DNA of 64,000 bases from an uncultured Bacilli bacterium (GTDB lineage Bacteria > Bacillota_I > Bacilli_A > ML615J-28 > CAG-313): the NCBI GenBank assembly GCA_934140285.1, contig CAKPBI010000006.1:7042-71041 (forward strand). The letters run 5' to 3'. Under the pieces are notes generated by a model. It saw only the letters and a list, made by a program, of their open reading frames with translations. It did not search any database and was not told the origin of the DNA. Each line of letters opens with the position of its first letter. Position 1 is the stretch's first letter. Of the stretch, positions 21,622 to 41,116 are shown piece by piece. The position numbers and the translations under genes were made by a program.

Positions 21622-21707
21622 GCAGCAGTGGCGGAACGGTAGACGCGCTACTTTGAGGGGGTAGTATACGCATGTATGTGTGAGTTCAAATCTCATCTGC
21701 TGCACCA
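21622..21707 (+). tRNA. tRNA-Leu (anticodon GAG), class II with long variable arm
   Basis: The acceptor stem is GCAGCAG/CTGCTGC with discriminator A and CCA. The anticodon stem-loop is CTACT-TTGAGGG-GGTAG. The T-arm is GTGAG-TTCAAAT-CTCAT. The variable hairpin is TATACGCATGTATGT. Confidence 0.75.
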
Positions 21708-21718
21708 TAAGAAGCAAT

Positions 21719-21752
21719 AAGCTTGATATAAATTGTATCAAGCTTTTTTTCT
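21719..21752 (+). terminator. rho-independent terminator after tRNA-Leu
   Basis: The hairpin AAGCTTGATA...TATCAAGCTT is followed by TTTTTTT. Confidence 0.7.
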
Positions 21753-21879
21753 TTTATATATTGCATTAATTATTGATTATACATAAGTTTTTTGGATGAC
21801 AGTAAAAATTTATTCATTTACGAAACAAAAATGTTGCAAATATCTAAATAATATTGTACAATAGCATTGAGGTATAGTT

Positions 21880-22197
21880 ATGAAAAAATTAAGTAAAATA
21901 GCAGAAATATATAATAACAAAGAATTAAAAGAAATGTCAATCGAACAACAAGAAAAATGGTTAAGAGCAAAAATAGTAATGCAATTTGTATATTTAAGAG
22001 AAAAACTAGGGTACACTCAACAAGAGATTGCGGATAAAATGGGAGTAATGCGTCAACAAATAACTAGATTTGAAAATATGAGTAATTCCCCAACTATTTT
22101 CTTTTTAGTAAAATATGCAAATGCATTGGATACCGAGTTAGATGTCGTTTTAAAAGGAATTGAATTAATAGGGGTGACAAATAATGAACAAATATGA
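21880..22197 (+). CDS. XRE-family helix-turn-helix transcriptional regulator
   Basis: LGYTQQEIADKMGVMRQQITRFEN is the HTH_XRE signature. A promoter TTGCAA...TGTACAAT lies at about 21834-21868. Confidence 0.6.
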   Translation: MKKLSKIAEIYNNKELKEMSIEQQEKWLRAKIVMQFVYLREKLGYTQQEIADKMGVMRQQITRFENMSNSPTIFFLVKYANALDTELDVVLKGIELIGVTNNEQI

Positions 22198-23050
22198 AAT
22201 TGTTAAGTTTGCTGATGATGAAGTAAAATTAGATGTCAATATTTCTCCGTTAGAAAAAACAATATGGATTAATATCGAGCAAATGTCTGTCTTATTTGAA
22301 AGGGATAGATCGGTAATAAGCAAACATATTAAAAATATTTTTTTGGAAGGAGAACTTTTGGAAAATTCAGTTTGTGCATTTTTTGCACATACTGCAAATG
22401 ATGGGAAGACATATAATGTTAAATATTATAATTTAGATGTAGTAATTTCAGTAGGATATAGAGTTAAGTCAAGAAGAGGTGTTCTATTTAGACAATGGGC
22501 AAACAATATAATACAGGAATATTTAATAAAAGGATATGCAATCAATGAAGAAAGAACCCTTGTTACTAATGAAAACTATGTAAGATTAATTAATAAAGTT
22601 GAGTCACTTGATGAAAGAGTTAGTAATATTGAAAAAGAATATAAACCAAAAGAATTTAAAAACACGCAACTTTTCTTTGATGGAGAGTTTTATGATGCAT
22701 ATACATTAATACAATCATTATTTGAATCAGCAAACAAAGAAATAATTATAATTGATAATTATGTTGATAGAACAATACTTGATAGATTAGTAGTAAAAAA
22801 AAGTGGTGTTCAAATATTAATTTATACAAGTATTAATTCAAGACTATTATCTAGAGATATAGATGCATTTAATAATCAGTATGGAGGTTTAGATGTTAGA
22901 TATACTGCTAATGTCCATGATAGATATATTATAATTGATCAAAATAAGTTATATCATTTAGGACACTCAATTAAAGACTTAGGTAAGAAGATATTTTCTA
23001 TCAGTGAATCAGATAATAGCTTAATATCCGTTTTATTGAGTAATATTTAG
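22184..23050 (+). CDS. RhuM-family protein (COG3943, virulence protein RhuM-like)
   Basis: The N-terminal block TIWINIEQMSVLFERDRSVISKHIKNIF and the block VGYRVKSRRGVLFRQWANNII match conserved RhuM family blocks. The gene overlaps the XRE gene, suggesting translational coupling. Confidence 0.6.
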   Translation: MNKYEIVKFADDEVKLDVNISPLEKTIWINIEQMSVLFERDRSVISKHIKNIFLEGELLENSVCAFFAHTANDGKTYNVKYYNLDVVISVGYRVKSRRGVLFRQWANNIIQEYLIKGYAINEERTLVTNENYVRLINKVESLDERVSNIEKEYKPKEFKNTQLFFDGEFYDAYTLIQSLFESANKEIIIIDNYVDRTILDRLVVKKSGVQILIYTSINSRLLSRDIDAFNNQYGGLDVRYTANVHDRYIIIDQNKLYHLGHSIKDLGKKIFSISESDNSLISVLLSNI

Positions 23051-23181
23051 GATTGACCTATAGCTCTACTTGTTTATAACTTCTTATGATTCTATTTTTT
23101 AAAAAATCAAAATAGAAACTTACAACAAATGTATTGACAATGTAATGACACTTTGATATAATTACATTGTGAGGTGATAAT

Positions 23182-23814
23182 ATGAGTTTTGTTCAAGTAA
23201 GAATTGAAGAAGAACTAAAAGAAGAAGCGATAAAATTATTTAATGAATTAGGTTTAGATTTATCTACAGCAATTCGTTTATTTTTAAAGAAATGTGTGGA
23301 AGATAAAAAATTGCCTTTTAAATTAAAAGTGAGAGAACATGATAATTCTAAAGATGTTGAATACAGAATAAAAGCTGATGTACTAGTACCACCTAGCACC
23401 AATCCGTTTGAATTGATGGATGAACTTATAAGAGTATGTAAAGAAAATGGATGGCACTGTCTTGGTGGTGGTGTTAAGTATCCAAATAAAGTATTAACAC
23501 TATCTAAAAAAGATGAAGGTATTTATTATTATGGATCTCCATATAGAATTGAAAAATTAGCAGAAAACTCTGATTTTACTCCATTTAAAGAACTTGCAAT
23601 TGCATTTGGAAGCAAGCCTTCGCATATATCTATTAATGAAGGAAAAGTAATTCATGATGGTATTAAATATCCAGTATATTTATATCAAATAGATGAAAAA
23701 ATAGAAATTGATAAAGACTTTACGAATCATCCTAATTCAGCATTTGGAGTAGGCATGGAATTTCGTACAAAAAGAGAATTAAAACTAAAATTAATTGATG
23801 TAATTAATGAATAA
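23182..23814 (+). CDS. RelB/DinJ-like ribbon-helix-helix antitoxin domain fused to ~150-aa C-terminal domain of unknown function
   Basis: The N-terminus MSFVQVRIEEELKEEAIKLFNELGLDLSTAIRLFLKKCVEDKKLPF closely parallels the DinJ antitoxin N-terminus. No RelE/YafQ-like toxin gene lies downstream. The RBS is GAGGTGA. Confidence 0.5.
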   Translation: MSFVQVRIEEELKEEAIKLFNELGLDLSTAIRLFLKKCVEDKKLPFKLKVREHDNSKDVEYRIKADVLVPPSTNPFELMDELIRVCKENGWHCLGGGVKYPNKVLTLSKKDEGIYYYGSPYRIEKLAENSDFTPFKELAIAFGSKPSHISINEGKVIHDGIKYPVYLYQIDEKIEIDKDFTNHPNSAFGVGMEFRTKRELKLKLIDVINE

Positions 23815-23826
23815 AAGAGAAAGTAT

Positions 23827-24144
23827 ATGTTTGTGAAATTATTTGTACCTTGTATTTCAATTATATTAGCACTGATTAATCTAATAAGACCAATGCAATG
23901 TGATGGTCCAATAGTTATTCGATTTGCTAAGAGAAATCCTAAATTATGGAATTTATCTCAAAGAATATATGCTGCACAATCATTATTATTAAATTTTGTG
24001 TTTTGTCTAATTGTAATTACTTTTAAAGATAATCATTACTTAAAAAATGAATTTTTAATTGTCACCATTATACTTTTAATTCAATTGATGCCGATAGCTT
24101 TTACATACTTAATTCTAAAAATAAAATGTAAAGATTTAAAATAA
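23827..24144 (+). CDS. small hydrophobic membrane protein, hypothetical
   Basis: This 105-aa ORF has about 3 predicted TM segments and a weak RBS. Confidence 0.3.
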   Translation: MFVKLFVPCISIILALINLIRPMQCDGPIVIRFAKRNPKLWNLSQRIYAAQSLLLNFVFCLIVITFKDNHYLKNEFLIVTIILLIQLMPIAFTYLILKIKCKDLK

Positions 24145-24204
24145 TAAATTGTAATTTGAAATGCAACAAAAATTAAATTTAAATAATCGCTTGACTTTTA
24201 ATGG

Positions 24205-24257
24205 TATTATTCCGTTAATTTAAAAATATTATTCCGTAAACACTTGATATTATTCCG
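24205..24257 (+). promoter_or_regulatory. three direct repeats of TATTATTCCG at 21-22 bp spacing overlapping the Fic-1 promoter (TTGATA 24244-24249, TGnTATAAT around 24265-24272)
   Basis: The repeats lie at 24205-24214, 24227-24236 and 24248-24257, about two helical turns apart. The last one overlaps the -35 element. Confidence 0.5.
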
Positions 24258-24295
24258 CTAATGTTGTATAATAAATAAAAAGAGAGGTATAATCA

Positions 24296-25183
24296 ATGTA
24301 TATAACTGTAAAACAAGCTGCAGAAAAATGGAAAATTTCTGAAAGAAGAATCCGTACTCTATGTGCAGAAGGAAAAATAAATGGAGCATATCAAGAAGGA
24401 CGTGGATGGAAAATACCAATTGACGCTGAAAAACCAGCCGATGGAAGATACAAGTCAAAAGAAAGTCTTTTATTAGTTATAGATAAAAAGAAACAAGAAC
24501 TTGATAATAGAAGACCTCTAACTGAAGGTGAAGTCGCAAGACTTAATGAAGAATTTATAGTTGAATATACCTATAATTCTAATGCTATTGAGGGAAATAC
24601 GTTAACGTTAAGAGAAACCGATCTAGTACTTAGAGGTATTACGATTGATAAAAAGCCATTAAAAGATCATATTGAAGCAGCTGGACATAAAGAAGCATTT
24701 GAATATGTTAGTGAGTTAGTTAAAAATAATGTTCCATTAAGTGAAAGCATTATTAAACAAATTCATTTCTTAGTTTTAGCTGATAAAAAGTATGATAGGG
24801 GTGTATATCGTAAAATTCCTGTACGTATAATGGGAGCTTACCATGAACCTGTACAACCTTATCTAATTGAACCTAAAATGGTACAACTTTTAATAGATTA
24901 TAAAGAAAGTAAAGAACATATAATAACTAAGTTAGCTCGCTTTCATATTGAGTTTGAAGCTATTCATCCATTTATTGATGGAAATGGTAGAACAGGTAGA
25001 TTATTAGTTAATTTAGAACTAATGAAAGCCGGATATCCACCAATTGATATTAAATATATTGATCGTTTTGCATATTATAAAGCATTTGATGAGTATCATA
25101 CTAATCATAATTTATCAGCAATGGAAAATTTATTTGCAAAATATATTAATGAAAGACTTGACATGTATTTAAAAATCTTATAA
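24296..25183 (+). CDS. Fic-family AMPylator with N-terminal HTH DNA-binding domain (class II, auto-inhibited)
   Basis: The Fic motif HPFIDGNGRTGR is present. SNAIEG, upstream of it, matches the inhibitory (S/T)xxxE(G/N) motif. The N-terminal segment KQAAEKWKISERRIRTLCAEGKI is HTH-like. Confidence 0.8.
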   Translation: MYITVKQAAEKWKISERRIRTLCAEGKINGAYQEGRGWKIPIDAEKPADGRYKSKESLLLVIDKKKQELDNRRPLTEGEVARLNEEFIVEYTYNSNAIEGNTLTLRETDLVLRGITIDKKPLKDHIEAAGHKEAFEYVSELVKNNVPLSESIIKQIHFLVLADKKYDRGVYRKIPVRIMGAYHEPVQPYLIEPKMVQLLIDYKESKEHIITKLARFHIEFEAIHPFIDGNGRTGRLLVNLELMKAGYPPIDIKYIDRFAYYKAFDEYHTNHNLSAMENLFAKYINERLDMYLKIL

Positions 25184-25422
25184 TAAACCAATAGTAATTC
25201 AACAAAACTTAGCATTTGAATAACCATTAATTTAAAAACTCCCTATAAAAAAGTGTATAATTTAATTTGAAACAATAATTATCTTTAAAAAAAATTGAAT
25301 AATAAAAATAAATATAATATTAGTAGTAACTTCAAACTTGCAGATAGTAATGTTGGTACCACAAACGGGATTAACACCATTCCATTATATATGGCATTTT
25401 TAATAAAATAAAATTTATGAAA

Positions 25423-25495
25423 AGGAACTAGTATATATGAACTGAACACCATTGTTCATTGGTGTATTTCAATATTTAGTTCCTTTTTGATATTT
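25423..25495 (+). terminator. long hairpin (AAAGGAACTA...TAGTTCCTTTTT, inner ACACCA...TGGTGT) downstream of Fic-1
   Basis: The inverted repeat is followed by a T-run. It is a probable terminator or attenuator between Fic-1 and the sigma-like gene. Confidence 0.45.
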
Positions 25496-25587
25496 ATAAG
25501 TTATTAATAATTATTATAGTAATATATAAAGTAGTGGGAACCTTTTTTAATCTTTTACAACTATATAAGTGAAGAGGTAAATATTTC

Positions 25588-27198
25588 ATGAATGAAACTA
25601 TGAACAAAAAGGAATTAAAAGAAAAAGTCGTAGATTATGCTAGTAAAGTATTTTTCTATTGTATCAAAAGATGCAATAACAGAATGGATGCTGAAGACTT
25701 ATCACAAACAATTCTCCTAGAAATAATTCAAAATATTGATAAAGGTGCACAGATCAATAATATGGATTACTACATCTGGGGAGTTTGTAAGAATCAATAC
25801 AACATGTATTTACGAAAGACCATTAAAGAAAGAAATAAAATAGAATACAAAGATGTAATTGATGATGTAGATAATTCAAAAACGGTAATTGAAGAAATGC
25901 TTGAAGATGAAAAAATCAGAAGAATGAATCAAGCCATTAAATTACTAAGTAAAGATTATGCAGAAATACTTTACGCTTATTATGTAGAAGATAAAACCTT
26001 AAAGTTCATAGCTGAAGAATTAAACTTACCTCTTGGAACTGTTAAAAAAAGACTGTTCACGCTTAGAAAAAAGTTAAAGGAGTACTTAGATATGGAAAAG
26101 CTAAATGGCAAAAAAGCCTATGTACCAAAAGATTTTTCGGGTATAATGAGTAATGAAGGAGAAATTGATTTTTATCCTGACTATGAAACCTCCCCCTTAT
26201 TAATTAAAAACTTACTATATCATTCATACAATAACCCTTGTTCAATTGAAGATTACTCAATTGAGCTAGGCATATCTGTTGCGTATGTCGAGGACTATGT
26301 TAAACAACTCGTCAAAAAAGAATTTTTAATAAAACAAGATAATGGTAAATACCTAACAAATATTGCGTTCGCAGATAAAAAAACAAGAATCAAAATTCTT
26401 AAACTTGTAAAAGAGAATATTCATATTATTCAAAAGCCAATCGTTGAATTTTGTAAGAAAAACATTGAATATTATCGTTCTTTATTATTAAATAAAATTA
26501 ATAATGATGAATTATTGATGTGGTCACTAATTTTTATTGTAGAATTAGCAATAACAGAAAAAAAACCTTACAAGGGAACTAAAAAATGTAAAAATGGATC
26601 ATGGGATTATTGTATGGCAGAAAACATAAATACATGTAAAAGTAATGAATATTTCATTTCTTTTAATACAACATCAGTTGATGAATGTAATGTAGCCTTA
26701 ATTGCATGGCCATCCTCAGTATGTAATCCCAACTTTAAAGTAGGATATAGAACATCCTGGAATAATGCTGCAAATGGAAGAGAAGATTATCAATTATTCT
26801 CACATGTTTTGGAAAACGAATTAAAATATGATGAATTAGATACAGATACAAAAACATTAGTTGATAAGTATATAAGTAATAATTACTTAAAAGTTGAAAA
26901 TAATATAATTAAAGTTATTCCTCCTGTAATTTCTAAAAATAATTTATTAAAACTTTATAATTTCATTAAAAATGATACTACTCTTCAAAATGCATTCAAT
27001 GAATATTCTAAAAATGTTTATAAAGAGGTTGAAAAATTATTTCCTTCATACTTACATAATCAATTAGAATTCATTGTATCTTCATTCACCGTTACTCAAC
27101 GTTCATTAATAATTAATTATGCTTACAATGAGGGGCTATTGTCATTAGATGATGAACAAAAACATTTTGTTTATAATATGATGGTTGTAAAAAAATAA
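25588..27198 (+). CDS. ECF-type sigma-70 family protein (regions 2 and 4) with ~370-aa C-terminal extension of unknown function
   Basis: Region-2-like DAEDLSQTILLEI...YYIWGVCKNQY and region-4.2-like LNLPLGTVKKRLFTLRKKL are present. The C-terminal part has a wHTH-like segment and no known domain. The RBS is GAAGAGG. Confidence 0.55.
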   Translation: MNETMNKKELKEKVVDYASKVFFYCIKRCNNRMDAEDLSQTILLEIIQNIDKGAQINNMDYYIWGVCKNQYNMYLRKTIKERNKIEYKDVIDDVDNSKTVIEEMLEDEKIRRMNQAIKLLSKDYAEILYAYYVEDKTLKFIAEELNLPLGTVKKRLFTLRKKLKEYLDMEKLNGKKAYVPKDFSGIMSNEGEIDFYPDYETSPLLIKNLLYHSYNNPCSIEDYSIELGISVAYVEDYVKQLVKKEFLIKQDNGKYLTNIAFADKKTRIKILKLVKENIHIIQKPIVEFCKKNIEYYRSLLLNKINNDELLMWSLIFIVELAITEKKPYKGTKKCKNGSWDYCMAENINTCKSNEYFISFNTTSVDECNVALIAWPSSVCNPNFKVGYRTSWNNAANGREDYQLFSHVLENELKYDELDTDTKTLVDKYISNNYLKVENNIIKVIPPVISKNNLLKLYNFIKNDTTLQNAFNEYSKNVYKEVEKLFPSYLHNQLEFIVSSFTVTQRSLIINYAYNEGLLSLDDEQKHFVYNMMVVKK

Positions 27199-27274
27199 AT
27201 TTAACAGACTATTGTAATTTCTTATCTATTATGATAAAATGTAAGCATAAATAAAAATTAAGGAAAAATAGATA

Positions 27275-27373
27275 ATGTTTAAATTTGTATTTGACTTAGG
27301 AACTATACTTAATATTTTCTTAACAATCTTATATTTAATTATTATAATTAGTTTCCAGTTTGTAAAGATTTAG
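27275..27373 (+). CDS. 32-aa hydrophobic peptide ORF (MFKFVFDLGTILNIFLTILYLIIIISFQFVKI)
   Basis: It has a good RBS (AAGGAAAAATAGATAATG). It is absent from the ORF track because it is below 60 aa. It is speculative. Confidence 0.2.
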   Translation: MFKFVFDLGTILNIFLTILYLIIIISFQFVKI

Positions 27374-27401
27374 TTCTTGGGGTATAAAAAGAAATATATG
27401 T

Positions 27402-27656
27402 ATGACCTCAGAAGAACTATGGCATAAAGTACATGTAAATGCAAGTTTTGCGACCATTCCATTTTTACTAATAAGTACCTTGTTAATCTTTCTAAATAAC
27501 CTTTGGGTTAAGATTGTCGTAGGTTTACTATTATTGTTAATACTTCCAATGATATGGAATATCGTAGTAAAACTAACCCCAAAAAATAAATCACTTGAAT
27601 TAAGAAAACAAGAACAACAAGAATCAGAATCACAAATAAAAAAAGAATCATATTAG
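27402..27656 (+). CDS. small two-TM membrane protein, hypothetical
   Basis: This 84-aa ORF is hydrophobic, has a charged C-terminus and a weak RBS. Confidence 0.3.
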   Translation: MTSEELWHKVHVNASFATIPFLLISTLLIFLNNLWVKIVVGLLLLLILPMIWNIVVKLTPKNKSLELRKQEQQESESQIKKESY

Positions 27657-27996
27657 AATTAATAAAACACCTAATTTCTACCACCAACGCAACTAACTGG
27701 TGCAGTAAATTAAGCATAAAAAGTTGATAAATTATTTATAATGTTATATAATATTAGTGTAAAAGACCTCAAACAACGAAAGGAGTTGATTACTATGAAA
27801 ATCATGTTTTATAATAAATTAGAAGTAATCAAATCCTTTATAGGTACAGATATTTAATATTTTGTAGCAAGCATATAGAAACTATAGGCACTTCTAGTTT
27901 ATTAGAGGTGCTTTTTTGTTGCTACAAGAAAGGAGTGATAACATATGAAACAAATAACTTTAAAACGAAAAGAGGTATCTTACTATTAGCTTTGGC

Positions 27997-28185
27997 ATGA
28001 ATTTAAGAAAATTAAGAGAAAAGAAAAACTTATCTCAAGAAGCTCTTTCAAAAAAACTAAAGATTTCTAGACATTCAATATCCAAGTGGGAACAAGATAT
28101 AAGTTATCCTAGTATTTTGTATCTTATTCCCATCACTAAAATACTTGAATGTACACTAGATGAATTATTGAAAGATCTAAATTAG
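27997..28185 (+). CDS. XRE-family HTH regulator (62 aa)
   Basis: LSQEALSKKLKISRHSISKWEQ is the HTH_XRE signature. It is preceded by a 14-codon ORF (27946-27990) carrying the strong RBS AAAGGAG. Confidence 0.45.
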   Translation: MNLRKLREKKNLSQEALSKKLKISRHSISKWEQDISYPSILYLIPITKILECTLDELLKDLN

Positions 28186-28483
28186 AAAGAAGGAGTTAAG
28201 AATGAATGAATTTAAAGTATATAAGACAATCCATTCTTTAAACAAAGCAAAGAAAATCATGATATTCAATTCATTAAAGTTGTATTAAATAAATGGAATA
28301 TTATTATGAAAAACTATAATTTCTATAAAAGATGTTTATTGGAATTAGGATTTAAACAAAAAGATAATGAACTATTCACACTAGATGTTGAATAAAGATA
28401 ATTAAAAAAAGTTAGTATACAATAAATTAATTGTAAAATTTAAAAGATAATGAGACAAACATATAATATAATTTGACTTTAGG

Positions 28484-28607
28484 TAATACTTATCTTTTAA
28501 TGAATTCAAATAATAATAAATGATTGCTACCGGGCAAATGAATGTAAAGCATTCATATACTTATCGTTAGGTCCTTGAAGATAAGTATGTGAATGCTTAT
28601 TTTTTTG
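28484..28607 (+). promoter_or_regulatory. structured 5' leader with intrinsic terminator directly upstream of pnuC RBS (candidate riboswitch/attenuator)
   Basis: An 18-bp stem (28548-28565 paired with 28580-28598, one G-U) and T9 end 8 nt before the RBS GGAGGA. The upstream segment TAATACTTATC (28484-28494) can pair with the 3' stem half as an antiterminator. Confidence 0.45.
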
Positions 28608-28616
28608 GAGGATTAT

Positions 28617-29320: not shown

Positions 29321-29423
29321 AATAAAGAATGCCGTTATCGGCAATTTAACTTTTAAAATCAACAATTAATTACTTGATAATTTGCCGATAATGTGATATA
29401 ATAATCCTATATGGAGGTGTTTT

Positions 29424-30320: not shown

Positions 30321-30388
30321 ATAATTATTATAAAATTACTTCACTTTTTTAAAACTTTGTTACTATATTAGTGAAAGGAGGTATCATT

Positions 30389-31945
30389 ATGCAAAATAAA
30401 GAGCAATTAAAAGAATTAATAGCAAGTGAATATTTAAATAGATTCTTAACATTTTATATAAGCAGAACCTCTTCAATACAAGATGCGGAAGACTTATCAC
30501 AAAAGGCGGCCTGTGAGTGTTTAGATGCTTTAAGTCGTGTTGAAGAAATAAAGAATGTAAATGCTTATTTTTGGAGTATTGCTCATAATGTATATAAAAA
30601 CTACATTAATAGAAAAAATAATTATATTTTAGATGATGATTATTGTAAAATACAAATTATTGACACTTGCGATGATGAAAATAATGAAGAACAAACATTA
30701 CATAATGATATTAGAAAATCACTAAGTATCCTTTCAGGGTTATATCGTAAGATAATAGTACTTTACTATTATCATGAATTAAAAATCAAAGATATAGCCG
30801 AAAAACTTAATATTAGCCAAGACATGGTTAAGTATTATTTGTCAAATGGAAAGAAAAAGTTAAAGGAGATTTATGATATGAATAAGACAATCGGTGAAGT
30901 AAGCTTTAATCCTAAAGATTTTTCAATATACTATTCAGGAATTGATTTTACAAGCATAAACGTGTGGGAACTATTTAAAAGAAAATTACCATGTCAAATT
31001 GCCTTAATATGTTATGCTAAACCTAAATCAGTAACTGAAATTTCTAATGAAGTAGGTTGTAGTAGTTGTTACATTGAAGATGAAATTGCAATACTATTAA
31101 AAGCCGGAGTATTAATTGAAAAAGTAAAGAATAAATATCAAACAAATTTTTGCATTATCAGTAAAGAAGAACTTGATGTTATTGATACAATGTATAAAAA
31201 AATGTATGACGAATATGTAAAAGAAGTTGAAAAAGTTTTTAATGAACATTTTGAACAATTTAAACAAACAAATATTTATAATTATAAAGCTGAAATAGAT
31301 CAATACAAATGGATTTTTGTAGATAGAATCGCAGATATAGATAAAAGAAAGTTAGTTACTAAAGATTCAGATTATCCCAAAATTTTATCGTGTGGTGCAA
31401 GAGGATTAGTTTTTGGATTAGAAGCCAAAACTCCAAAAGGAGTATGTGGTCAAACCCCAACTTCATTAAATGATTATACCCTATGGGCAAGAGATTTATG
31501 GTTATCTAAAAACCATAGTTCCAATCAAGTAATCTTAAGAGATAAAGTAATAGCACAAACCGTCATTGATGTGTATAATGGTATAGTTGATAATAGTAAA
31601 GAAGAATTATATGCCTATTTAATTAAAAACAATATTTTAATTAAAGATAATGGAGTATTAAAAACGACTATTGCCTACTTAAATGAGGATTTTCAAAAAC
31701 TAATGGAAAACATCAATAATGATTTATACGTTAAATTAGAATCATCAACAAACAAAATTAAAGAATATTTAACAAAAATAATAACCAAATCAATTCCAAG
31801 TAATCTAAAAGAATATGTTAATGGATATGTTGTTATTTTAATGGAATTCTTTGCTGGTAACAAAATAATTCAAACTTTAATTGAAAATAATTTTTTAAAT
31901 GATAAAATAAAAAACATCCAAATTAGTTATTTTATCAATAAATAA
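30389..31945 (+). CDS. ECF-type sigma-70 family protein with ~350-aa C-terminal extension, paralog of 25588-27198
   Basis: Region 2 reads IQDAEDLSQKAACE...AYFWSIAHNVY. Region 4 reads YRKIIVLYYYHELKIKDIAEKLNISQDMVKYYLSNGKKKLKE. The RBS AAGGAGG precedes the ATG at 30389. The domain order matches the first sigma-like gene. Confidence 0.55.
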   Translation: MQNKEQLKELIASEYLNRFLTFYISRTSSIQDAEDLSQKAACECLDALSRVEEIKNVNAYFWSIAHNVYKNYINRKNNYILDDDYCKIQIIDTCDDENNEEQTLHNDIRKSLSILSGLYRKIIVLYYYHELKIKDIAEKLNISQDMVKYYLSNGKKKLKEIYDMNKTIGEVSFNPKDFSIYYSGIDFTSINVWELFKRKLPCQIALICYAKPKSVTEISNEVGCSSCYIEDEIAILLKAGVLIEKVKNKYQTNFCIISKEELDVIDTMYKKMYDEYVKEVEKVFNEHFEQFKQTNIYNYKAEIDQYKWIFVDRIADIDKRKLVTKDSDYPKILSCGARGLVFGLEAKTPKGVCGQTPTSLNDYTLWARDLWLSKNHSSNQVILRDKVIAQTVIDVYNGIVDNSKEELYAYLIKNNILIKDNGVLKTTIAYLNEDFQKLMENINNDLYVKLESSTNKIKEYLTKIITKSIPSNLKEYVNGYVVILMEFFAGNKIIQTLIENNFLNDKIKNIQISYFINK

Positions 31946-32023
31946 TAACTTATAAAGTTACAAAAAACTAAATATAGTATATAATATTAAAGAAAACAAA
32001 TAAACTTAAGATAAGGTGATATC

Positions 32024-32731
32024 ATGAAAACATATAGTACTCCCCATTATATTTTTACATATGAAGAAGGAAGTCTTGCGGAAAAAGACATCAAAATGAT
32101 TGCTGATGTCCAAGAAAATAGTTTCAACAAAATATGTGAAACATTAAAAGTAGATTTTCCTGAAAAAATAAAATACTATTTATTAGATTCAAAAGAAGAA
32201 GTTGGAAAACTATATGGTGATAACACTCCTATTAATGGTTTTGCTGTATGGGGAGAAAACAAAGTTTATGTAGTTTATAACAATGATACAAAATGCATTG
32301 GCCCACATGAAGATGCTCATCTTATCTCATTTATTATTAATGCTCCCATATCTGACTTTATTGTTGAAGGCCTCGCAATGTACTTTGACAAAGAATGGTG
32401 GAGACAATCAAATGATAGCTGGGCAGCATATTATAAAAAGAATGATGATACTCTATCTATTTTGAAATTACTAGATAACAATGAATTCTTCAAATATAAT
32501 TGTGAACTAACATATCCCATAGCAGGTTCATTTACTAAATTTTTAATTGAAACTTTTGGTATTTCAAAATACCTCGAACTATACAAAATAAAAACGGAAA
32601 TAAAAAAAGAAGATTTTGAAAATATATTTAACCTTACTCCTTTTGAAATAGAAACAATGTATTGGAATAAAATTAAAGAAATTCCGTTTAATTCAAAAAT
32701 TTTCAAAAAACTATTAAATGATAACAAGTAA
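32024..32731 (+). CDS. hypothetical protein with HEXXH motif (possible small zinc-dependent peptidase)
   Basis: The only recognisable motif is HEDAHLISF. It is a 235-aa protein with no signal peptide. The RBS is AAGGTGA. Confidence 0.35.
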   Translation: MKTYSTPHYIFTYEEGSLAEKDIKMIADVQENSFNKICETLKVDFPEKIKYYLLDSKEEVGKLYGDNTPINGFAVWGENKVYVVYNNDTKCIGPHEDAHLISFIINAPISDFIVEGLAMYFDKEWWRQSNDSWAAYYKKNDDTLSILKLLDNNEFFKYNCELTYPIAGSFTKFLIETFGISKYLELYKIKTEIKKEDFENIFNLTPFEIETMYWNKIKEIPFNSKIFKKLLNDNK

Positions 32732-32749
32732 AATAAAGAGGTATCATCC

Positions 32750-33256
32750 ATGATTAATTTAGTTAAATTAAATTACACAAGCGATAAAGTAGATGAAATA
32801 TTAAAGGAAATGGCCATAATTACGATTGATAATTTATCATACATTTATGGCGATGATATGAAGTCAAATGAAAACATCAAAAGTTATGTAGAATACAAAA
32901 AACAAGCTAAACCCATAACATACTTAATGCATGATGAAACATCAATATTTGGATACTTAACTTTAAGTTTAAGTTCAAAGATATTATATATTGAAGATAT
33001 CCAAATTAAAAATAGCTATCGTAATAATCCAGGAGTCATGTCAATGATTCTAAAAACTATTACTATAGAGTATCTAGAAAATAAAAATCAAATTGATAAA
33101 GTTGTATACTACATTAATAAAAAGAATAAACTTTCACAACATAACTTTTCAAAATTTGCTGAAAAGACCGAAGAAACCAAAAACAGCTATATGTATGCAC
33201 TTAATTTAGAACATCCATTTATTGTAAAGATGATTGATAAAGTAAAAAAGCAATAA
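32750..33256 (+). CDS. putative GNAT-family acetyltransferase
   Basis: At 168 aa it has a GNAT-like size and a weak motif around IEDIQIKNSYRNNPGVMSMIL. Confidence is low. A terminator hairpin lies at 33262-33290. Confidence 0.35.
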   Translation: MINLVKLNYTSDKVDEILKEMAIITIDNLSYIYGDDMKSNENIKSYVEYKKQAKPITYLMHDETSIFGYLTLSLSSKILYIEDIQIKNSYRNNPGVMSMILKTITIEYLENKNQIDKVVYYINKKNKLSQHNFSKFAEKTEETKNSYMYALNLEHPFIVKMIDKVKKQ

Positions 33257-33295
33257 AATAAGTCTAGTAGGAATAAAACTACTAGACTATTTTTA

Positions 33296-33324
33296 TTGAC
33301 AAAACTAATGTGATTAGTTATAAT
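33296..33324 (+). promoter_or_regulatory. consensus sigma-70 promoter (TTGACA-17-TATAAT) with embedded palindrome AACTAAT-GTG-ATTAGTT (33303-33319) upstream of tetR
   Basis: The -35 and -10 elements are perfect. The 7-bp inverted repeat lies within the spacer and is a likely TetR operator. Confidence 0.6.
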
Positions 33325-33351
33325 ATAACTACAATTAGTTTGGAGGCCAAT

Positions 33352-33918
33352 ATGTCTAAAAATAATATTAACGAACAACTTATTATTGAAACAGCAGCAT
33401 CCCTAGTTAATAAAGTAGGTTTAACTAATTTATCATTAAAACTAGTGGCAGAAGAATTAAATATTAAATCACCATCTTTATATAATCATATTTCTAGTTT
33501 GGAAGAACTAAAATCCAAACTTATGATCTATGGATGGAGATGCCTTGAAGAAAAGATAATTGATGCTGCAGTAGGAGTAACTGGATATGATGCTATAAAA
33601 AATATGTGTTATGCCTTTTATGATTATGCTACAACTAATAAAGGTATATTTACAACAATGCTTTGGTACAACAAATTTGAAAGTGTGGAAAAAGCTACAA
33701 CAAAACTATTTAATATTGTATTTAAAATAATGAAACCACTAAATATTAGTGAAGATAATATAAATCATATAATAAGAACACTAAGAGGATTCTTAGATGG
33801 CTTTGCTTTGCTTGTAAATAACGATGCATTTGGCAATCCGCTTCCTATAAAGGAAAGTTTTGATTTATCCCTTGAAATAATTATTAATGGCATAAAAACC
33901 CTAGAAGGAGTGAACTAA
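33352..33918 (+). CDS. TetR/AcrR-family transcriptional regulator
   Basis: The N-terminal HTH reads IETAASLVNKVGLTNLSLKLVAEELNIKSPSLYNHI. The RBS is TGGAGG. Confidence 0.7.
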   Translation: MSKNNINEQLIIETAASLVNKVGLTNLSLKLVAEELNIKSPSLYNHISSLEELKSKLMIYGWRCLEEKIIDAAVGVTGYDAIKNMCYAFYDYATTNKGIFTTMLWYNKFESVEKATTKLFNIVFKIMKPLNISEDNINHIIRTLRGFLDGFALLVNNDAFGNPLPIKESFDLSLEIIINGIKTLEGVN

Positions 33919-33919
33919 A

Positions 33920-34678
33920 ATGAATGATTATATCAATTTAACGCATGATAACATTGAAAAAGAACATATTTGTTGTGCCATTGGAGACAAAAAACATCAA
34001 AAAGGTGTTGAAAAGAAAAAACAATGGATTGAAAGAAAACTTGATGATGGTCATATTTTTCGAAAACTAAATGCTAGAGGCAAAGTATTTATAGAATATG
34101 AACCAATTGAAACCGCATGGGTACCAATCAATGGACATAATTATGAATATATTTATTGCTTGTGGGTAGCTGGTAGTTTCAAAGGAAAAGGAATTGCAAA
34201 AGAACTTTTAGAATATGCCATAGCTGACGCAAGATCAAAAGGTATGAGTGGTATTTGTACAATAACTTCCAAAAAGAAAAAACCTTTTATTGGCGAAAAA
34301 GCCTTCTACCTTCATTATAACTTTAAAGTAGTAGATGAAATTGATGATTATGAACTACTAGCATTAGAATTTAATAATGATGAGACACCTAAATTTAATG
34401 AAAATGCAAAACTTATGAAAATAGATAATCAAGACTTTACAATTTATTATAGTAATGAGTGTCCTTATGTTGAATATGAAGTAGAAGAACTTAGTGAATA
34501 TGCGAAAAATAATAATATAATAATTAACTTCATAAAAGTTGATACATTAGAAAAAGCTAAAAGTGTACCTTGTATTTTTAACAATTGGGCTAACTTTTAT
34601 AAGGGTAAGTTCATATCAAACACAATTCTAAACGCTAATGCTTTAGAAAAATTAATTAAAAGTTTAAATAATGACTAA
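33920..34678 (+). CDS. GNAT-family N-acetyltransferase with YoaP-like C-terminal domain
   Basis: CLWVAGSFKGKGIAKELLEYAIADAR is the acetyl-CoA binding Q/RxxGxG/A-like motif. The architecture is two-domain. Confidence 0.55.
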   Translation: MNDYINLTHDNIEKEHICCAIGDKKHQKGVEKKKQWIERKLDDGHIFRKLNARGKVFIEYEPIETAWVPINGHNYEYIYCLWVAGSFKGKGIAKELLEYAIADARSKGMSGICTITSKKKKPFIGEKAFYLHYNFKVVDEIDDYELLALEFNNDETPKFNENAKLMKIDNQDFTIYYSNECPYVEYEVEELSEYAKNNNIIINFIKVDTLEKAKSVPCIFNNWANFYKGKFISNTILNANALEKLIKSLNND

Positions 34679-34693
34679 TTTTAGGAGAATTAT

Positions 34694-35266
34694 ATGAATG
34701 AACGTCCCAACTTAACTAAAGAATTAAAGGTAGAAACATTTCTTAATTATTATTATTTAAAAGAAGAATTAATTAATTTTTGTAAAGAATATAACTTACC
34801 ATCATCAGGTAGTAAGATTGAACTAACTAACCGTATTGCATATTTCCTTAAAACAGGTTTAATCCAAAAACCTGAACGTAAAAAAACAATTAAACAACAT
34901 CATCAAGACATTACTGAAGATTCACTGATTGAACCAAATTTTGTGTACTCAGAAGAAAATAGAGCCTTCTTTGTCAGCAAAATTGGTAAAAGCTTTTCAT
35001 TCAATGTTTTATTTCAAAAATGGTTGAAAACAAACGCTGGTAAAACATATAAAGATGCTATCAATGCCTATTATGAAATACTAAATACCAAGAAAAAAAC
35101 AAACACGCCAATTGATAAGCAATTTGAATATAACACCTATATTCGTGATTTCTTTAAAGAAAACCACAACAAAACTTTAGCTGATGCTATAATTTGTTGG
35201 AAATATAAAAAGAGTCTACCTGGTCACAATCGCTATGAACCATCAGACCTTAAAGCATTAGATTAA
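34694..35266 (+). CDS. SAP-domain-containing hypothetical protein
   Basis: LKEELINFCKEYNLPSSGSKIELTNRIAYFL matches the SAP motif pattern. Confidence 0.4.
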   Translation: MNERPNLTKELKVETFLNYYYLKEELINFCKEYNLPSSGSKIELTNRIAYFLKTGLIQKPERKKTIKQHHQDITEDSLIEPNFVYSEENRAFFVSKIGKSFSFNVLFQKWLKTNAGKTYKDAINAYYEILNTKKKTNTPIDKQFEYNTYIRDFFKENHNKTLADAIICWKYKKSLPGHNRYEPSDLKALD

Positions 35267-35337
35267 TAAAAACAAATTACTTGACTTATAGCTATATTAT
35301 AATGTTATAATTTAACTATAAAAATGGAGGGAATAAA

Positions 35338-35994
35338 ATGAAAACAATCACAATAACAGGAATCGGCAAACTATCAGTTAAACCAGATTTAATCGTAATC
35401 TCTATGCAGCTTGATACCGAAAACAAAGAATATGATCAAGCAATGCTTTCAGCAAGTGAAAAAATTAATGCCTTAAATAAATCACTAGAAGAACTAGGAT
35501 TTAGTAAAGATGCTTTAAAAACTACAAACTTTAATGTTCGTACAATCTATGAAAATATAAAAGATGAAACTGGTAGATATAAAAATGTATTTAAAGGTTA
35601 TTCTTGTATTCATAACTTAAAGTTAGAATTTGACTTTGATACCAAACAACTATCAAAAGTATTATCAAGAATATCTAACTGTATCGCAAAACCAGAACTT
35701 TCGATTTTATTTACCATAGAAGATAAAACAAAGATAAACGAAGAACTTTTAAAATCAGCTTCTTTCAATGCCTTAGAAAAAGCAAAAATCCTATGTCTTG
35801 CTTCAAACGTAAAACTAGGTAATCTTATATCAATTAATTATAGTTGGGGAGAACTAAATGTTCATTCAGATACTAACTATAAAGTAGAAGCAAGATGTAT
35901 GATGAAAGCAGAATCTTGTCTTTCTAATATAGATATTGAACCTGAAGATATCGATATAACAGATTCTGCAACTTTTGTTTGGAAAATAATTTAA
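35338..35994 (+). CDS. SIMPL/DUF541-family protein (YggE-like)
   Basis: The N-terminus ITITGIGKLSVKPDLIVISMQLDTE and its size fit DUF541. A bidirectional terminator lies at 36014-36038. Confidence 0.4.
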   Translation: MKTITITGIGKLSVKPDLIVISMQLDTENKEYDQAMLSASEKINALNKSLEELGFSKDALKTTNFNVRTIYENIKDETGRYKNVFKGYSCIHNLKLEFDFDTKQLSKVLSRISNCIAKPELSILFTIEDKTKINEELLKSASFNALEKAKILCLASNVKLGNLISINYSWGELNVHSDTNYKVEARCMMKAESCLSNIDIEPEDIDITDSATFVWKII

Positions 35995-36021
35995 ATATAA
36001 AAAAGAATACACAAAAAGCCA

Positions 36022-36660
36022 TCAGTTTTGATGGCTTATTTCATTATGTGATAAAAATAAATGAATTCCAATTGCAGCATTAAAACCCGTAGCTGCAAAA
36101 ACACTAAATCTCTCAACAATACCAAAATATCTTTCTGGTACTATCTTCATGCCAAGAGCACCAACTAACATCATACCAAGGGCAACACAGGCACATATTG
36201 CGTAGGACAATAGACTTTTATCTTTAAATCCAGCAATAATAATAATAACTAAAGATGAAATAGATAAGAGTACTACCAAAACAGTAACAACCATATGCAT
36301 AACATCTTGGAATTCTCCTTGATAGCCACTTGCACTCAGTGGAAACATACGATATCCAACCGCAGAAATCCATTCCATCCCCGCAAACATATGCACGCCT
36401 ATTCTTAATAACTTAGTTTTTTTGTTACTAATCCAAACACATACCATCATAATACTTAGTACTTCACAAACATTGTAAAAGCTACTAAGTTGATTCCATA
36501 AAGCAAGTGAAGGTGAGTTTGTGGCACTAAGATCACTTACCGCTTGTCTCATCCAATCATATCCTGGATATGCAAGTGGTGAAAATATTACAGCAATACT
36601 ATAGGATAGTAGACTAACTACCCCAAGCAATCCACAATAGTTTAATAAACTTTTTTTCAT
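36022..36660 (-). CDS. polytopic membrane protein, hypothetical (co-transcribed with TetR)
   Basis: This 212-aa ORF has 5-6 TM segments. It overlaps the tetR stop by 1 nt. Confidence 0.4.
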   Translation of the reverse strand: MKKSLLNYCGLLGVVSLLSYSIAVIFSPLAYPGYDWMRQAVSDLSATNSPSLALWNQLSSFYNVCEVLSIMMVCVWISNKKTKLLRIGVHMFAGMEWISAVGYRMFPLSASGYQGEFQDVMHMVVTVLVVLLSISSLVIIIIAGFKDKSLLSYAICACVALGMMLVGALGMKIVPERYFGIVERFSVFAATGFNAAIGIHLFLSHNEISHQN

Positions 36661-37271
36661 TAATCATTACTCTTTACTTCGTGGGTTTTACAAAAACATT
36701 GAAGATATTCATCAAGCAAAGAATTATCAAAACTTAAATTAGCTATCAAATTATCTTCCCTTAAATCAATTAACTCATGTGTGGTAAAAGCAAAAGATAA
36801 AGCTTCAATCTTAATGTTAGAAAAGGACAATAAATTATGTTTACTCATACCAACGAATAACATATTGGTTGCTTGAATCATTTTATTAGTTTCTTCAACT
36901 AAGATAGCAGCTGCAGTAGATGATATAGAACGTTCACTATAAATTACTTTATAAAAATTCTTCATATCTTTTTGTTCTACCATACTAATATAACTATATA
37001 CAGCAGTTTGTAATATTTTTAAAGGATCTTTTTCTTCAAATATTTTAACATAATCAATATCATTAACATTACTTGCATCTCTAGTTTTATTTCTTAAAAA
37101 CAAGTATAATTCATTAATTAATTCATCTTTTGATGAAAAATGATTATATAATGAAGGTTTCTTAATGCCTATTTTTTCAGCAATCATATTCATAGCAATC
37201 CCCCTAATACCATAAATCGATGTTATATCAAGAGTAGCCATTAAAATAGTTTCTTTTCCATTTATTTTCAT
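36660..37271 (-). CDS. TetR/AcrR-family transcriptional regulator
   Basis: The HTH reads ITSIYGIRGIAMNMIAEKIGIKKPSLYNHF. The 20-bp perfect palindrome AAACTACCGAACGGTAGTTT (37285-37304) lies immediately upstream. Confidence 0.65.
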   Translation of the reverse strand: MKINGKETILMATLDITSIYGIRGIAMNMIAEKIGIKKPSLYNHFSSKDELINELYLFLRNKTRDASNVNDIDYVKIFEEKDPLKILQTAVYSYISMVEQKDMKNFYKVIYSERSISSTAAAILVEETNKMIQATNMLFVGMSKHNLLSFSNIKIEALSFAFTTHELIDLREDNLIANLSFDNSLLDEYLQCFCKTHEVKSND

Positions 37272-37284
37272 AAACACTTCTAAA

Positions 37285-37304
37285 CTACCGAACGGTAGTT
37301 TTTA
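37285..37304. promoter_or_regulatory. 20-bp perfect palindrome AAACTACCGAACGGTAGTTT, candidate TetR operator
   Basis: This perfect inverted repeat lies 8-27 bp upstream of the minus-strand tetR start. Confidence 0.5.
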
Positions 37305-37499
37305 TTTTCTTTTTTCAAATAATTAAACCTACAAAAACTATATCTTTTATTAATTGCTAAAAAAAGGGAAATATGCTATAATGTTACTGAAATAATAAGA
37401 AGGAAATTGTTGAAATTATTAAGTATTATATCAACACCTTTCTTATAATCAACATAATAATATTATATTATTATATATAATAAGGAAAGGAATTATCTC

Positions 37500-37796
37500 A
37501 TGGTAAAACACATTGTTTGTTTTAAACTAAAAGACAATAGTCTTGAAAATTGCTTAAAAACTAAAGAAATACTTATGTCGATGAAAGGAAATGTTGAAAA
37601 CCTAGTAGATATTAAAGTAGGTATTGATTACTTACATTCAGAACGTTCATATGACATTATTTTAGAAACCATCTTTAATACAAAAGAAGATGTTCAAAAA
37701 TATCAAAGTGATCCTTATCATTGTAATGTTGTAAAAAAACATATGCACGCGGTAAGAGAAGCAAGCATCGCAATCGATTATGAAATGGAGGACTAA
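37500..37796 (+). CDS. Dabb (stress-responsive alpha/beta barrel) family protein
   Basis: MVKHIVCFKLKD is the typical Dabb start. It is 98 aa. The RBS is AAGGAAAGG. Confidence 0.6.
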   Translation: MVKHIVCFKLKDNSLENCLKTKEILMSMKGNVENLVDIKVGIDYLHSERSYDIILETIFNTKEDVQKYQSDPYHCNVVKKHMHAVREASIAIDYEMED

Positions 37797-37799
37797 ACA

Positions 37800-38522
37800 A
37801 TGTTACAATTTAAAATCAAAGATCATCAAATAGGAAAAGACATCTGGATGAGTAAAACTGATTTATTTCATAACTTCTATGGTGAATTTTACAACTTCAT
37901 CTTAAATAATGGTGGCCAAGAAGATTTAGAAAGCCATGACATACATAATATCAATGATTTTTACAATTACGCTGATTGGAATGCTGATGGCAAAGATAGT
38001 TGCTATGCAATGGGATTTTCTTTTCATAAATATTACCTAACCCCTGGAGTTGGTAGAACTATCCAAGATCAACCAGAAACTACATTTATTGGATATTGTT
38101 ATAAAAATCAAATGTTTACTGACTTTCTTAATTTCCTAATTACCTTTTTCGCATGGTGGCGAAATGATGAAGGTTGTACTTGTTTTGATCCATACAACCA
38201 CGCAGATGAATTTTTTAACTCATCTTGGGCAGCCCTAGTTGATACATCTAAATTATTTTATCTATCAAGTGAAACTGTATATCACTGGCAATCATTTAGA
38301 GTAAAATATGCTTTAGATAATATTCCTGGAGTGATATTACATTACCCAGAAAATGAAAAAGATCGCTTAAGAGTCGCTGGCTATGAATTCATGGGATTTA
38401 CTAGTGATGATGGTTTAGTAGCAGAACTAAAACAAAAAGATACCTACAACTACTGGGAAAAAGAAGAAAAGACCATTAAGAAAGTTTATATTAAAGACTA
38501 CAAGAAAGTAGACCCTGCATAA
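37800..38522 (+). CDS. hypothetical protein
   Basis: This 240-aa ORF is Trp/Tyr/Phe-rich. No recognisable motifs were found. The RBS is TGGAGG. Confidence 0.3.
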   Translation: MLQFKIKDHQIGKDIWMSKTDLFHNFYGEFYNFILNNGGQEDLESHDIHNINDFYNYADWNADGKDSCYAMGFSFHKYYLTPGVGRTIQDQPETTFIGYCYKNQMFTDFLNFLITFFAWWRNDEGCTCFDPYNHADEFFNSSWAALVDTSKLFYLSSETVYHWQSFRVKYALDNIPGVILHYPENEKDRLRVAGYEFMGFTSDDGLVAELKQKDTYNYWEKEEKTIKKVYIKDYKKVDPA

Positions 38523-38662
38523 TTATTTATAAATACTCTATTTGTTTTAAAATAATTAGTTCCATAAATAATTATTTTGATAATGTTGGAGTTACTAAAT
38601 TTTCCCTAAAAGAGCTAAAATAGTAGTTTTGATATAATTTAAAAGAAAATGTAGGTGAAAAT

Positions 38663-39148: not shown

Positions 39149-39194
39149 AGTGCAATCGATATACTAAAATCGATAAAAAGGTATCGATTATATC
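39141..39194. repeat. four ATCGAT(A) palindromes phased at exactly 14 bp (39141, 39155, 39169, 39183) upstream of the adh promoter
   Basis: The units are atcgataaagtgca, atcgatatactaaa, atcgataaaaaggt and atcgattatatcaa. A consensus promoter (TTGACA 39238-39243, TATAAT 39261-39266) follows. Confidence 0.6.
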
Positions 39195-39294
39195 AAATAT
39201 GATATAATTATATAAAAACTTCATATATTTTAACCCTTTGACATTACATTTTACTTGCAGTATAATATTAATGTATCTAAAGGAGGTATTTGAA

Positions 39295-40512: not shown

Positions 40513-40560
40513 AAAAATGAGTCCCCTAAGGGACTCTTTTATAAAAAGGTAGGTAAAATA

Positions 40561-41088: not shown

Positions 41089-41116
41089 TGCCGGATTAAA
41101 ATCCGACATTTTTTCT

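Follow-up and report, generated by a model that had tools for sequence, protein, structure and literature searches.

The DNA described here is a segment (positions 21622–38662) of a 64,000-nt window, the whole stretch that was analysed, from an uncultured Bacilli bacterium (CAG-313; contig CAKPBI010000006.1). The segment starts with a tRNA-Leu(GAG) gene and continues into a block of regulatory and defence-type genes. Our data suggest that it is likely to be part of a flexible locus between two core blocks, entered by foreign DNA at the CCA end of the tRNA and empty at that point in the window, joined to a block of genes that is fixed in the species, immobile and partly decaying. The core on the left would consist of RNase R, SmpB, a TPR protein, a thioesterase and the tRNA-Leu gene, and the core on the right of 3-hydroxyacyl-CoA dehydrogenase (3HCDH), a lipoprotein, ApbE and Rnf, with a non-mobile block of ∼17–19.4 kb between them. 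The block probably arose by accretion from past insertions.

The within-species set consisted of human-gut metagenome contigs 98.4–100% identical to the window, found by exact-protein look-up with four baits: the thioesterase, the first XRE regulator of the block, the YbaK-type deacylase and 3HCDH. The thioesterase gene lies to the left of the tRNA, and this bait does not presuppose the presence of the block. All counts of conspecific contigs given below are among the matches listed. Metagenome contigs were used because the species of the window is not among the one-genome-per-species matches (best 75%). The cross-species set came from a thioesterase-profile scan of one genome per species and from look-ups of 77–81% homologues. 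The tRNA was called by ARAGORN and Rfam, domains by Pfam and NCBIfam, and defence families by PADLOC. Repeats were searched by BLAST with the tRNA plus 53 nt downstream, by nhmmer profiles and by blastn-short with 12 variants of the arm beside the junction.

The site next to the tRNA was occupied in 17 of the 22 conspecific contigs found with the thioesterase, and empty, as in the window, in the other 5. Two Dcm-type methylases (with or without a LlaJI-type system) followed by phage genes were present in 15/22 contigs, a type III restriction–modification (R-M) system with a HamA/helicase pair (Hachiman-type) in 1/22, and a 3.9-kb insert coding for an 829-aa Flg_new protein in 1/22. All occupied contigs, including L001, L002, L004 and L005, diverged from the window within 21707–21711. 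In the contigs found with the XRE regulator, the far end of a large insert could be read: tail genes are followed there by a tandem pair of large serine recombinases, after which the sequence matches the window again from exactly 21706 (L014, L015 and L017). The two recombinases (436 and 529 aa), each with Resolvase, Recombinase and Zn-ribbon domains, are paralogues with 39% identity and end ∼290 bp before the XRE start codon. A third large serine recombinase (474 aa, inverted) was seen in L014. Contig NODE_563 spans both flanks, and its tRNA-to-YbaK distance is 53.9 kb longer than that of the window. By gene content and length, we identify the inserted element as a predicted tailed-phage prophage of ∼50–54 kb. 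IMG/VR contigs of 50–52 kb code for the same recombinase (95–98% identity) and stop at, or cross into other host arms at, the same ...AAATACAT point.

Alignment of the junctions placed the crossover at the last nucleotides of the tRNA. With a slash marking the junction, attB of the window reads GCACCAT/AAGAAGC, attL of L001 GCACCAT/TAGAGTA, and attR of L014, L015 and L017 AAATACAT/AAGAAGC; common to the three is only CA(T), the end of the tRNA CCA. The host-arm motif reappeared unchanged at attR beyond the prophage in the L014-type contigs. The terminator of tRNA-Leu, a hairpin and T-run, lies at 21719–21750 within this arm, and at attL of L001 (10608–10650) the tRNA is followed at once by a hairpin and T-run contributed by the left arm of the prophage. 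The native terminator is thus displaced to attR and replaced by the prophage hairpin, and the tRNA gene therefore retains a terminator in the lysogen; tRNA-Leu(GAG) was undamaged whether the site was empty or occupied. From these alignments, the spacer between the tRNA and the XRE gene is the predicted attachment site of a serine recombinase, unoccupied in the window. The att site adjoining the tRNA is likewise predicted to be an intact, usable attB and not an attL, as prophages insert there and the host arm is unchanged at attR. A 28-mer across the predicted attP junction (GTTGTTCAAATACAT + TAGAGTACATTAG) gave 0 matches in viral contigs, where the related IMG/VR contigs have ends of the prophage type, and absence from that collection is weak evidence.

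According to a review of integrative elements, ∼2 bp of identity suffice for serine recombinases, which usually integrate inside genes, and the targets of tyrosine recombinases are tRNA 3′ ends (PMC5704250). A long direct repeat is missing at tRNA-Leu because serine recombinases need an identical core of only 2–3 bp, and the tRNA end is a somewhat unusual target because these enzymes usually integrate within genes. The original prediction took the missing integrase and repeat as the mark of an old or degraded island. That reading fails, since the elements using the site encode large serine recombinases at the distal end and have no more than CA(T) in common with it. The same prediction named the tRNA 3′ end as an island insertion site: the end is a real insertion site, but the block is invariant and the variable part is the tRNA–XRE spacer.

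Beside the crossover, the arm of the element contains three AGGGGTG-type repeats ∼30 nt apart (L014:9720–9826, L005:14400–14512 and L019:600–716). This triple arm is shared by the phage and by the small inserts of L005 and L019, which have no recombinase; this suggests that such inserts may be mobilised in trans by the same machinery. The tandem recombinases were compared with the Ccr recombinases of the staphylococcal cassette chromosome (SCC) and rejected as Ccr orthologues on NCBIfam score: they reached 147.8 and 136.7 bits with SCCmet_CcrB (cutoff 900) and 76.7 and 68.3 bits with CcrA (cutoff 700), well short of the equivalog cutoffs for CcrA, CcrB and CcrC.

The block did not vary with the state of the site. 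All 23 contigs found with YbaK and all 23 found with 3HCDH kept the gene order of the window over 10 kb towards the tRNA, the sole differences among them being sporadic splits of DUF998 or SAP-DUF6434. The order XRE-RhuM-RelB-Fic-Sig, where Sig is the first of two sigma factor genes, was present, to the end of the contig, in 18 of 19 XRE contigs, and the block accompanied both the empty and the occupied tRNA site. Parts of the block were found in other company elsewhere. An XRE-RhuM pair with the att motif precedes unrelated Flg_new_2 genes in L019. Genes similar to Sig2, XRE and Sig1 cluster in one distant species in the absence of Fic genes, and a 77% relative of the small XRE2 adjoins Sig1- and Sig2-like genes in L279. 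Signs of decay are a split pnuC gene, a deletion in a GNAT gene and the single-strain splits of DUF998 or SAP-DUF6434. These data suggest that (i) the block is not strain-variable, as judged from every conspecific contig that could be checked; and (ii) it is a mosaic whose parts would have different histories, and not one element, because the XRE-RhuM pair has other cargo in L019 and Sig1, XRE2 and Sig2 cluster elsewhere without Fic.

In eight other species (L022, L023, L024, L030, L032, L087, L182 and L183) the left flank is kept in the order Tig-ClpX-Lon-SecG-RNase R-SmpB-TPR-hypothetical protein-thioesterase-tRNA-Leu(GAG). Beyond the tRNA, wherever the contig extends, the related species have different low-GC sequence, and none of the window block genes follows tRNA-Leu in these eight. 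The gene order of the block, whose conservation across related genera had been named as what would speak for a core region, was thus found in none of them. The tRNA of L022 is followed by a HipA-like gene and that of L183 by two XRE genes and two ABC transporters. L023 (deposited as 'Staphylococcus sp. CAG:324', FR890804.1) has serine recombinase fragments and then radical-SAM and other genes. These fragments (L023:11093–11812) lie directly after tRNA-Leu(GAG), retain Recombinase and Zn-ribbon parts without a catalytic domain and are, from their domains and position, a putative decayed remnant, at the corresponding site of a different species, of a large serine recombinase. In L182, an XRE fragment, Fic, KilA-N, XRE and a Na/H exchanger follow the tRNA, and three further att-like motif copies of ∼50 bp (14661–14723, 16810–16876 and 18894–18961) delimit cassettes of ∼4.1, 2.1 and 2.1 kb holding XRE fragment-Fic-KilA-N-XRE, the Na/H exchanger and two unknown open reading frames (ORFs), respectively; this array looks like tandem accretion. 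Independent contigs of a sister species (L185, L186 and L187, whose loci end at 10550) break inside or just after tRNA-Leu, the pattern that would be expected from assembly breaks at a strain-variable junction.

The right edge of the locus was located with ApbE orthologues (70–76% identity). In L191 the conserved block opens with 3HCDH (minus strand)-lipoprotein-ApbE-RnfCDGEA, in L193 with the lipoprotein, and neither contig has YbaK, Fe-ADH or NUDIX upstream of 3HCDH/ApbE. The 130-nt arm 3′ of tRNA-Leu in L184 and L190 (GCACCAT/TAAAGTCGGTC...) has a 95% identical counterpart in L191. There, an attR-type junction (ACACACAT/) precedes this arm and MetNIQ-SDR-3HCDH-lipoprotein-ApbE-Rnf follows it. 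Because the 130-nt match joins them, the tRNA site and the Rnf block mark the two sides of a single locus in both species, with ∼3.9 kb (MetNIQ-SDR) between the flanks in the sister species and ∼19.4 kb (21.7–41.1 kb) in the window. This comparison supports the view that 21.7–41.1 kb is a lineage-specific filling between two conserved blocks, accessory at the species level. A scan of metagenomes for YbaK synteny was uninformative (60–69% identity in many unrelated contexts, no synteny). Judged by synteny, the right edge would lie at ∼41.1 kb, at the start of 3HCDH, and not at 38.6 kb as first proposed, although 38.6 kb is still a reasonable functional and compositional edge; YbaK, Fe-ADH and NUDIX between the two positions are housekeeping-like with a core-like composition. 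The earlier description of the region as accessory holds in that it is absent after tRNA-Leu in eight relatives, but the region is present in all conspecific contigs checked.

A shift in composition had been proposed as a mark of the island. The GC content of the region is 0.25–0.27, compared with 0.30–0.34 in the flanks, and that of the block genes 0.274, compared with 0.305 and 0.328 in the two cores (p = 1e-6). This deficit lies wholly in codon position 1 (0.370 vs. 0.44–0.47). GC content at codon position 3 (GC3) is 0.182 in the block and 0.188 and 0.171 in the cores (p = 0.89), and the dinucleotide distance delta* from block to core is 38, compared with 62 ± 6.5 for random core chunks. 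The block is thus indistinguishable from the core by GC3 and dinucleotide signature, and the GC dip was discarded as a sign of foreign origin. The composition gives no sign of recent foreign origin because GC3 equals that of the core and delta* falls below the spread of the core chunks.

Searches for traces of past integration agreed with the original prediction that the region lacks a recombinase, a transposase and a direct repeat of the tRNA 3′ end. Recombinase, transposase and Phage_integrase domains were all undetected by Pfam in the ORFs from 21.7 to 41.1 kb, as were phage genes in the block. The 3′ end of the tRNA is not repeated in the window; the best BLAST match is one chance 12-mer inside a gene at 45934, and the search for a degenerate attR downstream, which had been suggested, gave chance matches only. 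The nhmmer profile of the host arm found its sole window copy at the tRNA (E = 1e-16), with the next forward-strand match at E = 1.7. The element-arm profile and the 12 arm variants, taken from other strains and species, gave chance matches only and no scar at either right-end candidate. Megablast of 21700–41100 found no match among phage and plasmid records, and the internal repeats of the block were short A/T-rich chance pairs and the paralogy of the two sigma factors only.

We propose that the block was built piecemeal from earlier insertions at the tRNA-Leu hotspot. Each newcomer would enter beside the tRNA and shift the older cargo rightwards; the block would then have lost its recombination functions and junction sequences and become fixed. 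Its genes would now be ordinary chromosomal genes, comprising candidate anti-phage functions, stand-alone regulators (XRE, TetR and extended ECF-type sigma factors) and small-molecule or detoxification functions, and many of them may have their own promoter and terminator. Several points weigh against this proposal. An att scar, the arm motif and a recombinase remnant were all undetected within the block, and the native GC3, which fits an old acquisition or one from a close relative, fits vertical descent equally well. The comparators are all metagenome contigs or metagenome-assembled genomes (MAGs), with conspecific status judged by percent identity; exact-protein look-ups are biased to close strains and blind to strains with diverged or missing copies; and the bridge to the sister species is a 130-nt match that links two contigs of different samples.

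The locus was compared with known systems. As in the classical tRNA islands and prophages with tyrosine integrases (pathogenicity islands, integrative and conjugative elements, P4-like elements), cargo with accessory and defence genes lies 3′ of an intact tRNA gene and tandem accretion is possible. In contrast to them, the locus has neither a tyrosine integrase nor a duplicated 15–76-bp segment of the tRNA 3′ end; the elements at the site carry large serine recombinases and the block has no mobility genes at all. Prophages with large serine integrases (phiC31, Bxb1, A118 and the SprA system of SPbeta) share with the inserted element the Resolvase, Recombinase and Zn-ribbon architecture, a tiny identical core, hybrid attL and attR sites without long repeats, and recombinase genes at one end of the phage. 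The inserted element differs in that it enters precisely at the 3′ end of a tRNA gene and leaves that gene undisrupted, where serine recombinases usually integrate inside a gene, and in that its recombinases are two tandem paralogues. Defence-island hotspots between core genes of the E. coli pan-genome share the fixed position and the strain-dependent defence cargo, but here strain variability is confined to the tRNA–XRE spacer and the 17–19-kb block is invariant (PMC10121019). The defence cargo of the locus comprises Dcm-type methylases with or without LlaJI, type III R-M, HamA with a helicase, RhuM (PDC-S05) and Fic (PDC-S04). Overall, this kind of locus is well known, and its tRNA-end target for serine recombinases, the tandem recombinase pair and the cassette arrays are modestly unusual.

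The SCC and SCCmec cassettes of staphylococci (CcrA/CcrB, rlmH 3′ end) raise a more specific possibility, which we regard as unlikely though conceivable: that the CCA end of tRNA-Leu(GAG) is the entry point of an SCC-like accretion of cassettes run by tandem large serine recombinases. The phages would carry the pair, recombinase-less cassettes with the triple AGGGGTG arm would be moved in trans, and the block would be a fossil cassette array with eroded junctions. Tandem large serine recombinases of similar size, integration at a 3′ end without disruption of a housekeeping gene, and cassette arrays with att-like repeats, some of them recombinase-less (L182 and L005), are common to both. The recombinases at the tRNA are, however, not Ccr orthologues, the carrier is a tailed phage of ∼50 kb and the target is a tRNA gene and not rlmH. 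The resemblance is an analogy drawn from what is generally known of SCC and does not imply membership.

Entry of a single old integrative island at the tRNA-Leu 3′ end, with later loss of its integrase and att repeats, is improbable. It would account for a block directly 3′ of a tRNA that strain comparison proves to be an integration site, for the absence of that block between the same flanks in the sister species and for the decayed genes and defence-type cargo; the mosaic content, with the L019 pair and the Fic-less sigma cluster, the lack of a scar at either candidate right end, the intact attB where an attL would be expected, and the native composition all argue against it. Quite improbable is a native, vertically inherited region, with the species differences caused by differential loss and rearrangement at a synteny breakpoint. 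Eight relatives have no block gene after tRNA-Leu, MetNIQ-SDR alone separates these flanks in the sister species, the cargo is of a mobile type (RhuM, Fic, an orphan antitoxin domain and XREs) and the site is a hotspot in several species, even though GC3 and dinucleotide signature are those of the core, the block is fixed in the species, relatives of Sig2 (46–81% identity) occur in other species of the lineage along with the Sig1/XRE2/Sig2 cluster of the distant one, and Fe-ADH shares an operator-like palindrome with the control region of the core 3HCDH and lipoprotein genes. The view that the block belongs to a prophage, or is an island still mobile today or variable among strains, is contradicted by the data and can hardly be maintained: apart from the position beside the tRNA and the low overall GC nothing speaks for it, the block has no recombinase, att site, phage genes or match to phage and plasmid records, and it was present in the empty and occupied states and in all contigs checked. 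The reading that accommodates these observations best is the flexible locus, empty at the tRNA in the window, with a fixed and partly decaying block behind it.

The coordinates of the features are collected in Table 1.

Table 1. Features of the tRNA-Leu(GAG) locus, with positions in the window unless a contig is named.
Feature	Position	Strand	Basis
tRNA-Leu(GAG)	21622–21707	+	ARAGORN; Rfam RF00005
Host-side att arm, including tRNA terminator hairpin	21697–21764	+	nhmmer profile, E = 1e-16
Crossover core CA(T), CCA end of tRNA	21706–21708	none	attB/attL/attR alignment
XRE regulator	21880–22197	+	Pfam HTH_3
RhuM-family protein	22184–23050	+	Pfam Virulence_RhuM; PADLOC PDC-S05 full length, E = 1.7e-90
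RelB/DinJ fusion	23182–23814	+	Pfam RelB 7e-13; NCBIfam RelB_DinJ 2.5e-18
105-aa membrane ORF, next after RelB fusion	23827–24144	+	
HTH_17-Fic #1 (Fic1)	24296–25183	+	Pfam Fic 2.5e-20; PADLOC PDC-S04 7.2e-40, SoFic 3.4e-29
ECF-type sigma with C-terminal extension #1 (Sig1)	25588–27198	+	Pfam Sigma70_r2/r4; TIGR02937 79 bits vs. cutoff 42.9
Small XRE (XRE2)	27997–28185	+	Pfam HTH_3 2e-14
GNAT remnant	28203–28400	+	Comparison with L021
pnuC (NMN transporter), two ORFs	28593–28859 and 28883–29356	+	Pfam NMN_transporter positions 1–43, 72–162
HTH_17-Fic #2 (Fic2)	29424–30320	+	Pfam; PADLOC PDC-S04 4.6e-108
ECF-type sigma with C-terminal extension #2 (Sig2)	30371–31945	+	Pfam
Regulator/small-molecule cargo	32024–38522	mixed	Pfam
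TetR #1 (TetR1)	33310–33918	+	Pfam
GNAT-YoaP	33920–34678	+	Pfam
TetR #2	36660–37277	−	Pfam
YbaK-type deacylase, Fe-ADH (called start 39295), NUDIX	38663–41088	+	Pfam; GC at codon position 1 0.465
3HCDH, first gene of right core block	41117–42067	−	86% identity and synteny in L191
Tandem large serine recombinases (right prophage end at window 21706–21708)	L014:6850–9715; L015:6847–9712		

The switch after tRNA-Leu to regulators and defence-type genes, as first described from the sequence, was borne out by Pfam for essentially the whole gene list. The XRE and RhuM genes form a candidate defence pair. The PDC families of PADLOC are defence candidates by genomic association, and on these family matches the RhuM protein (PDC-S05) and both Fic proteins (PDC-S04) are candidate anti-phage proteins; with the NCBIfam SoFic equivalog the Fic proteins scored 44.9 and 29.5 bits (cutoff 550). 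In the RelB fusion, the RelB/DinJ domain occupies residues 1–65 and the remaining ∼145–150 residues match no family; no toxin partner was recognised adjacent to it. Beyond their sigma domains, Sig1 and Sig2 are extended by ∼350 aa; they have a winged helix-turn-helix-like segment and a divergent C-terminal extension of ∼270 aa, lack an obvious membrane segment, and are 32% identical to each other over ∼270 aa. The Sig2 family has 41 proteins, whose named members are all 'Bacilli bacterium' MAGs. Relatives of Sig2 lie in mixed neighbourhoods that do not adjoin Fic (L274, L277 and L279), and a conserved two-gene module of HTH-Fic and extended sigma factor was ruled out on this ground.

GNAT genes had been predicted in the plural; one is intact (GNAT-YoaP) and the second is only a deletion remnant near 28.2 kb. 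About 795 bp of this gene, coding for a 334-aa GNAT, are deleted in the window and most strains, and the gene is intact in L021 (L021:6370–7374). The alignment blocks on the two sides overlap by 17 bp (window 28223–28239), consistent with a microhomology-mediated deletion. The pnuC gene is split in all strains (80 aa + 145/157 aa), and no riboswitch was found upstream of it, as the Rfam scan gave two tRNAs only. The cargo at the right comprises, in order, two unknown ORFs, TetR, GNAT-YoaP, SAP-DUF6434, SIMPL, DUF998 (minus strand), TetR (minus strand), Dabb and an unknown 240-aa protein. Three ORFs of the block lack any Pfam family. The 'tiny membrane peptides' of the original prediction are ORF predictions only, one with a weak match to SdpI.

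It is plausible that many block genes each have a promoter of their own. Sigma-70-like sites, perfect or 11/12, immediately precede the RelB fusion (a consensus promoter at 23134–23162), Fic1, Fic2 and TetR1. Promoter-like sites numbered 170 (139 ± 12 in shuffles) and terminator-like sites 16 (4.6 ± 1.9 in shuffles).

Other features were seen to the right of the block. The palindrome ATCGATAAA-N4-TATCGAT (ATCGATA...TATCGAT) clusters at two places only, upstream of Fe-ADH (39141–39188) and between the 3HCDH and lipoprotein genes (42106–42174), with 8 matches vs. 0.11 expected. It is absent in the sister species L191 and L193, and is probably a shared operator for one regulator. The 362-aa lipoprotein gene upstream of ApbE contains an internal direct repeat of 203 nt with 88% identity (42673–42875 and 43171–43373). 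Further on, at 56638–63395, four tandem paralogous genes (207–209 aa, with near-identical N-termini) precede a gene for a 1325-aa protein of secreted or surface type, and GC is lower here than anywhere else in the window (0.24–0.27; GC3 0.126).

For annotation, the block is best described as a lineage-specific region of a flexible locus that is fixed in the species, and not as a mobile island, and the empty attachment site at 21697–21764 as the real hotspot. Three cues for an island were misleading here: the low GC reflects amino-acid composition alone, the lack of a direct repeat is what serine recombinases would lead one to expect, and the adjacency to the tRNA indicated the spacer and not the block. 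The locus supplies a natural set of attB, attL and attR sites for an uncharacterised pair of large serine recombinases whose target, the end of a tRNA gene, is not disrupted, and it catalogues which defence cargo is swapped at a single site of a bacterium that is prevalent in the human gut but uncultured.

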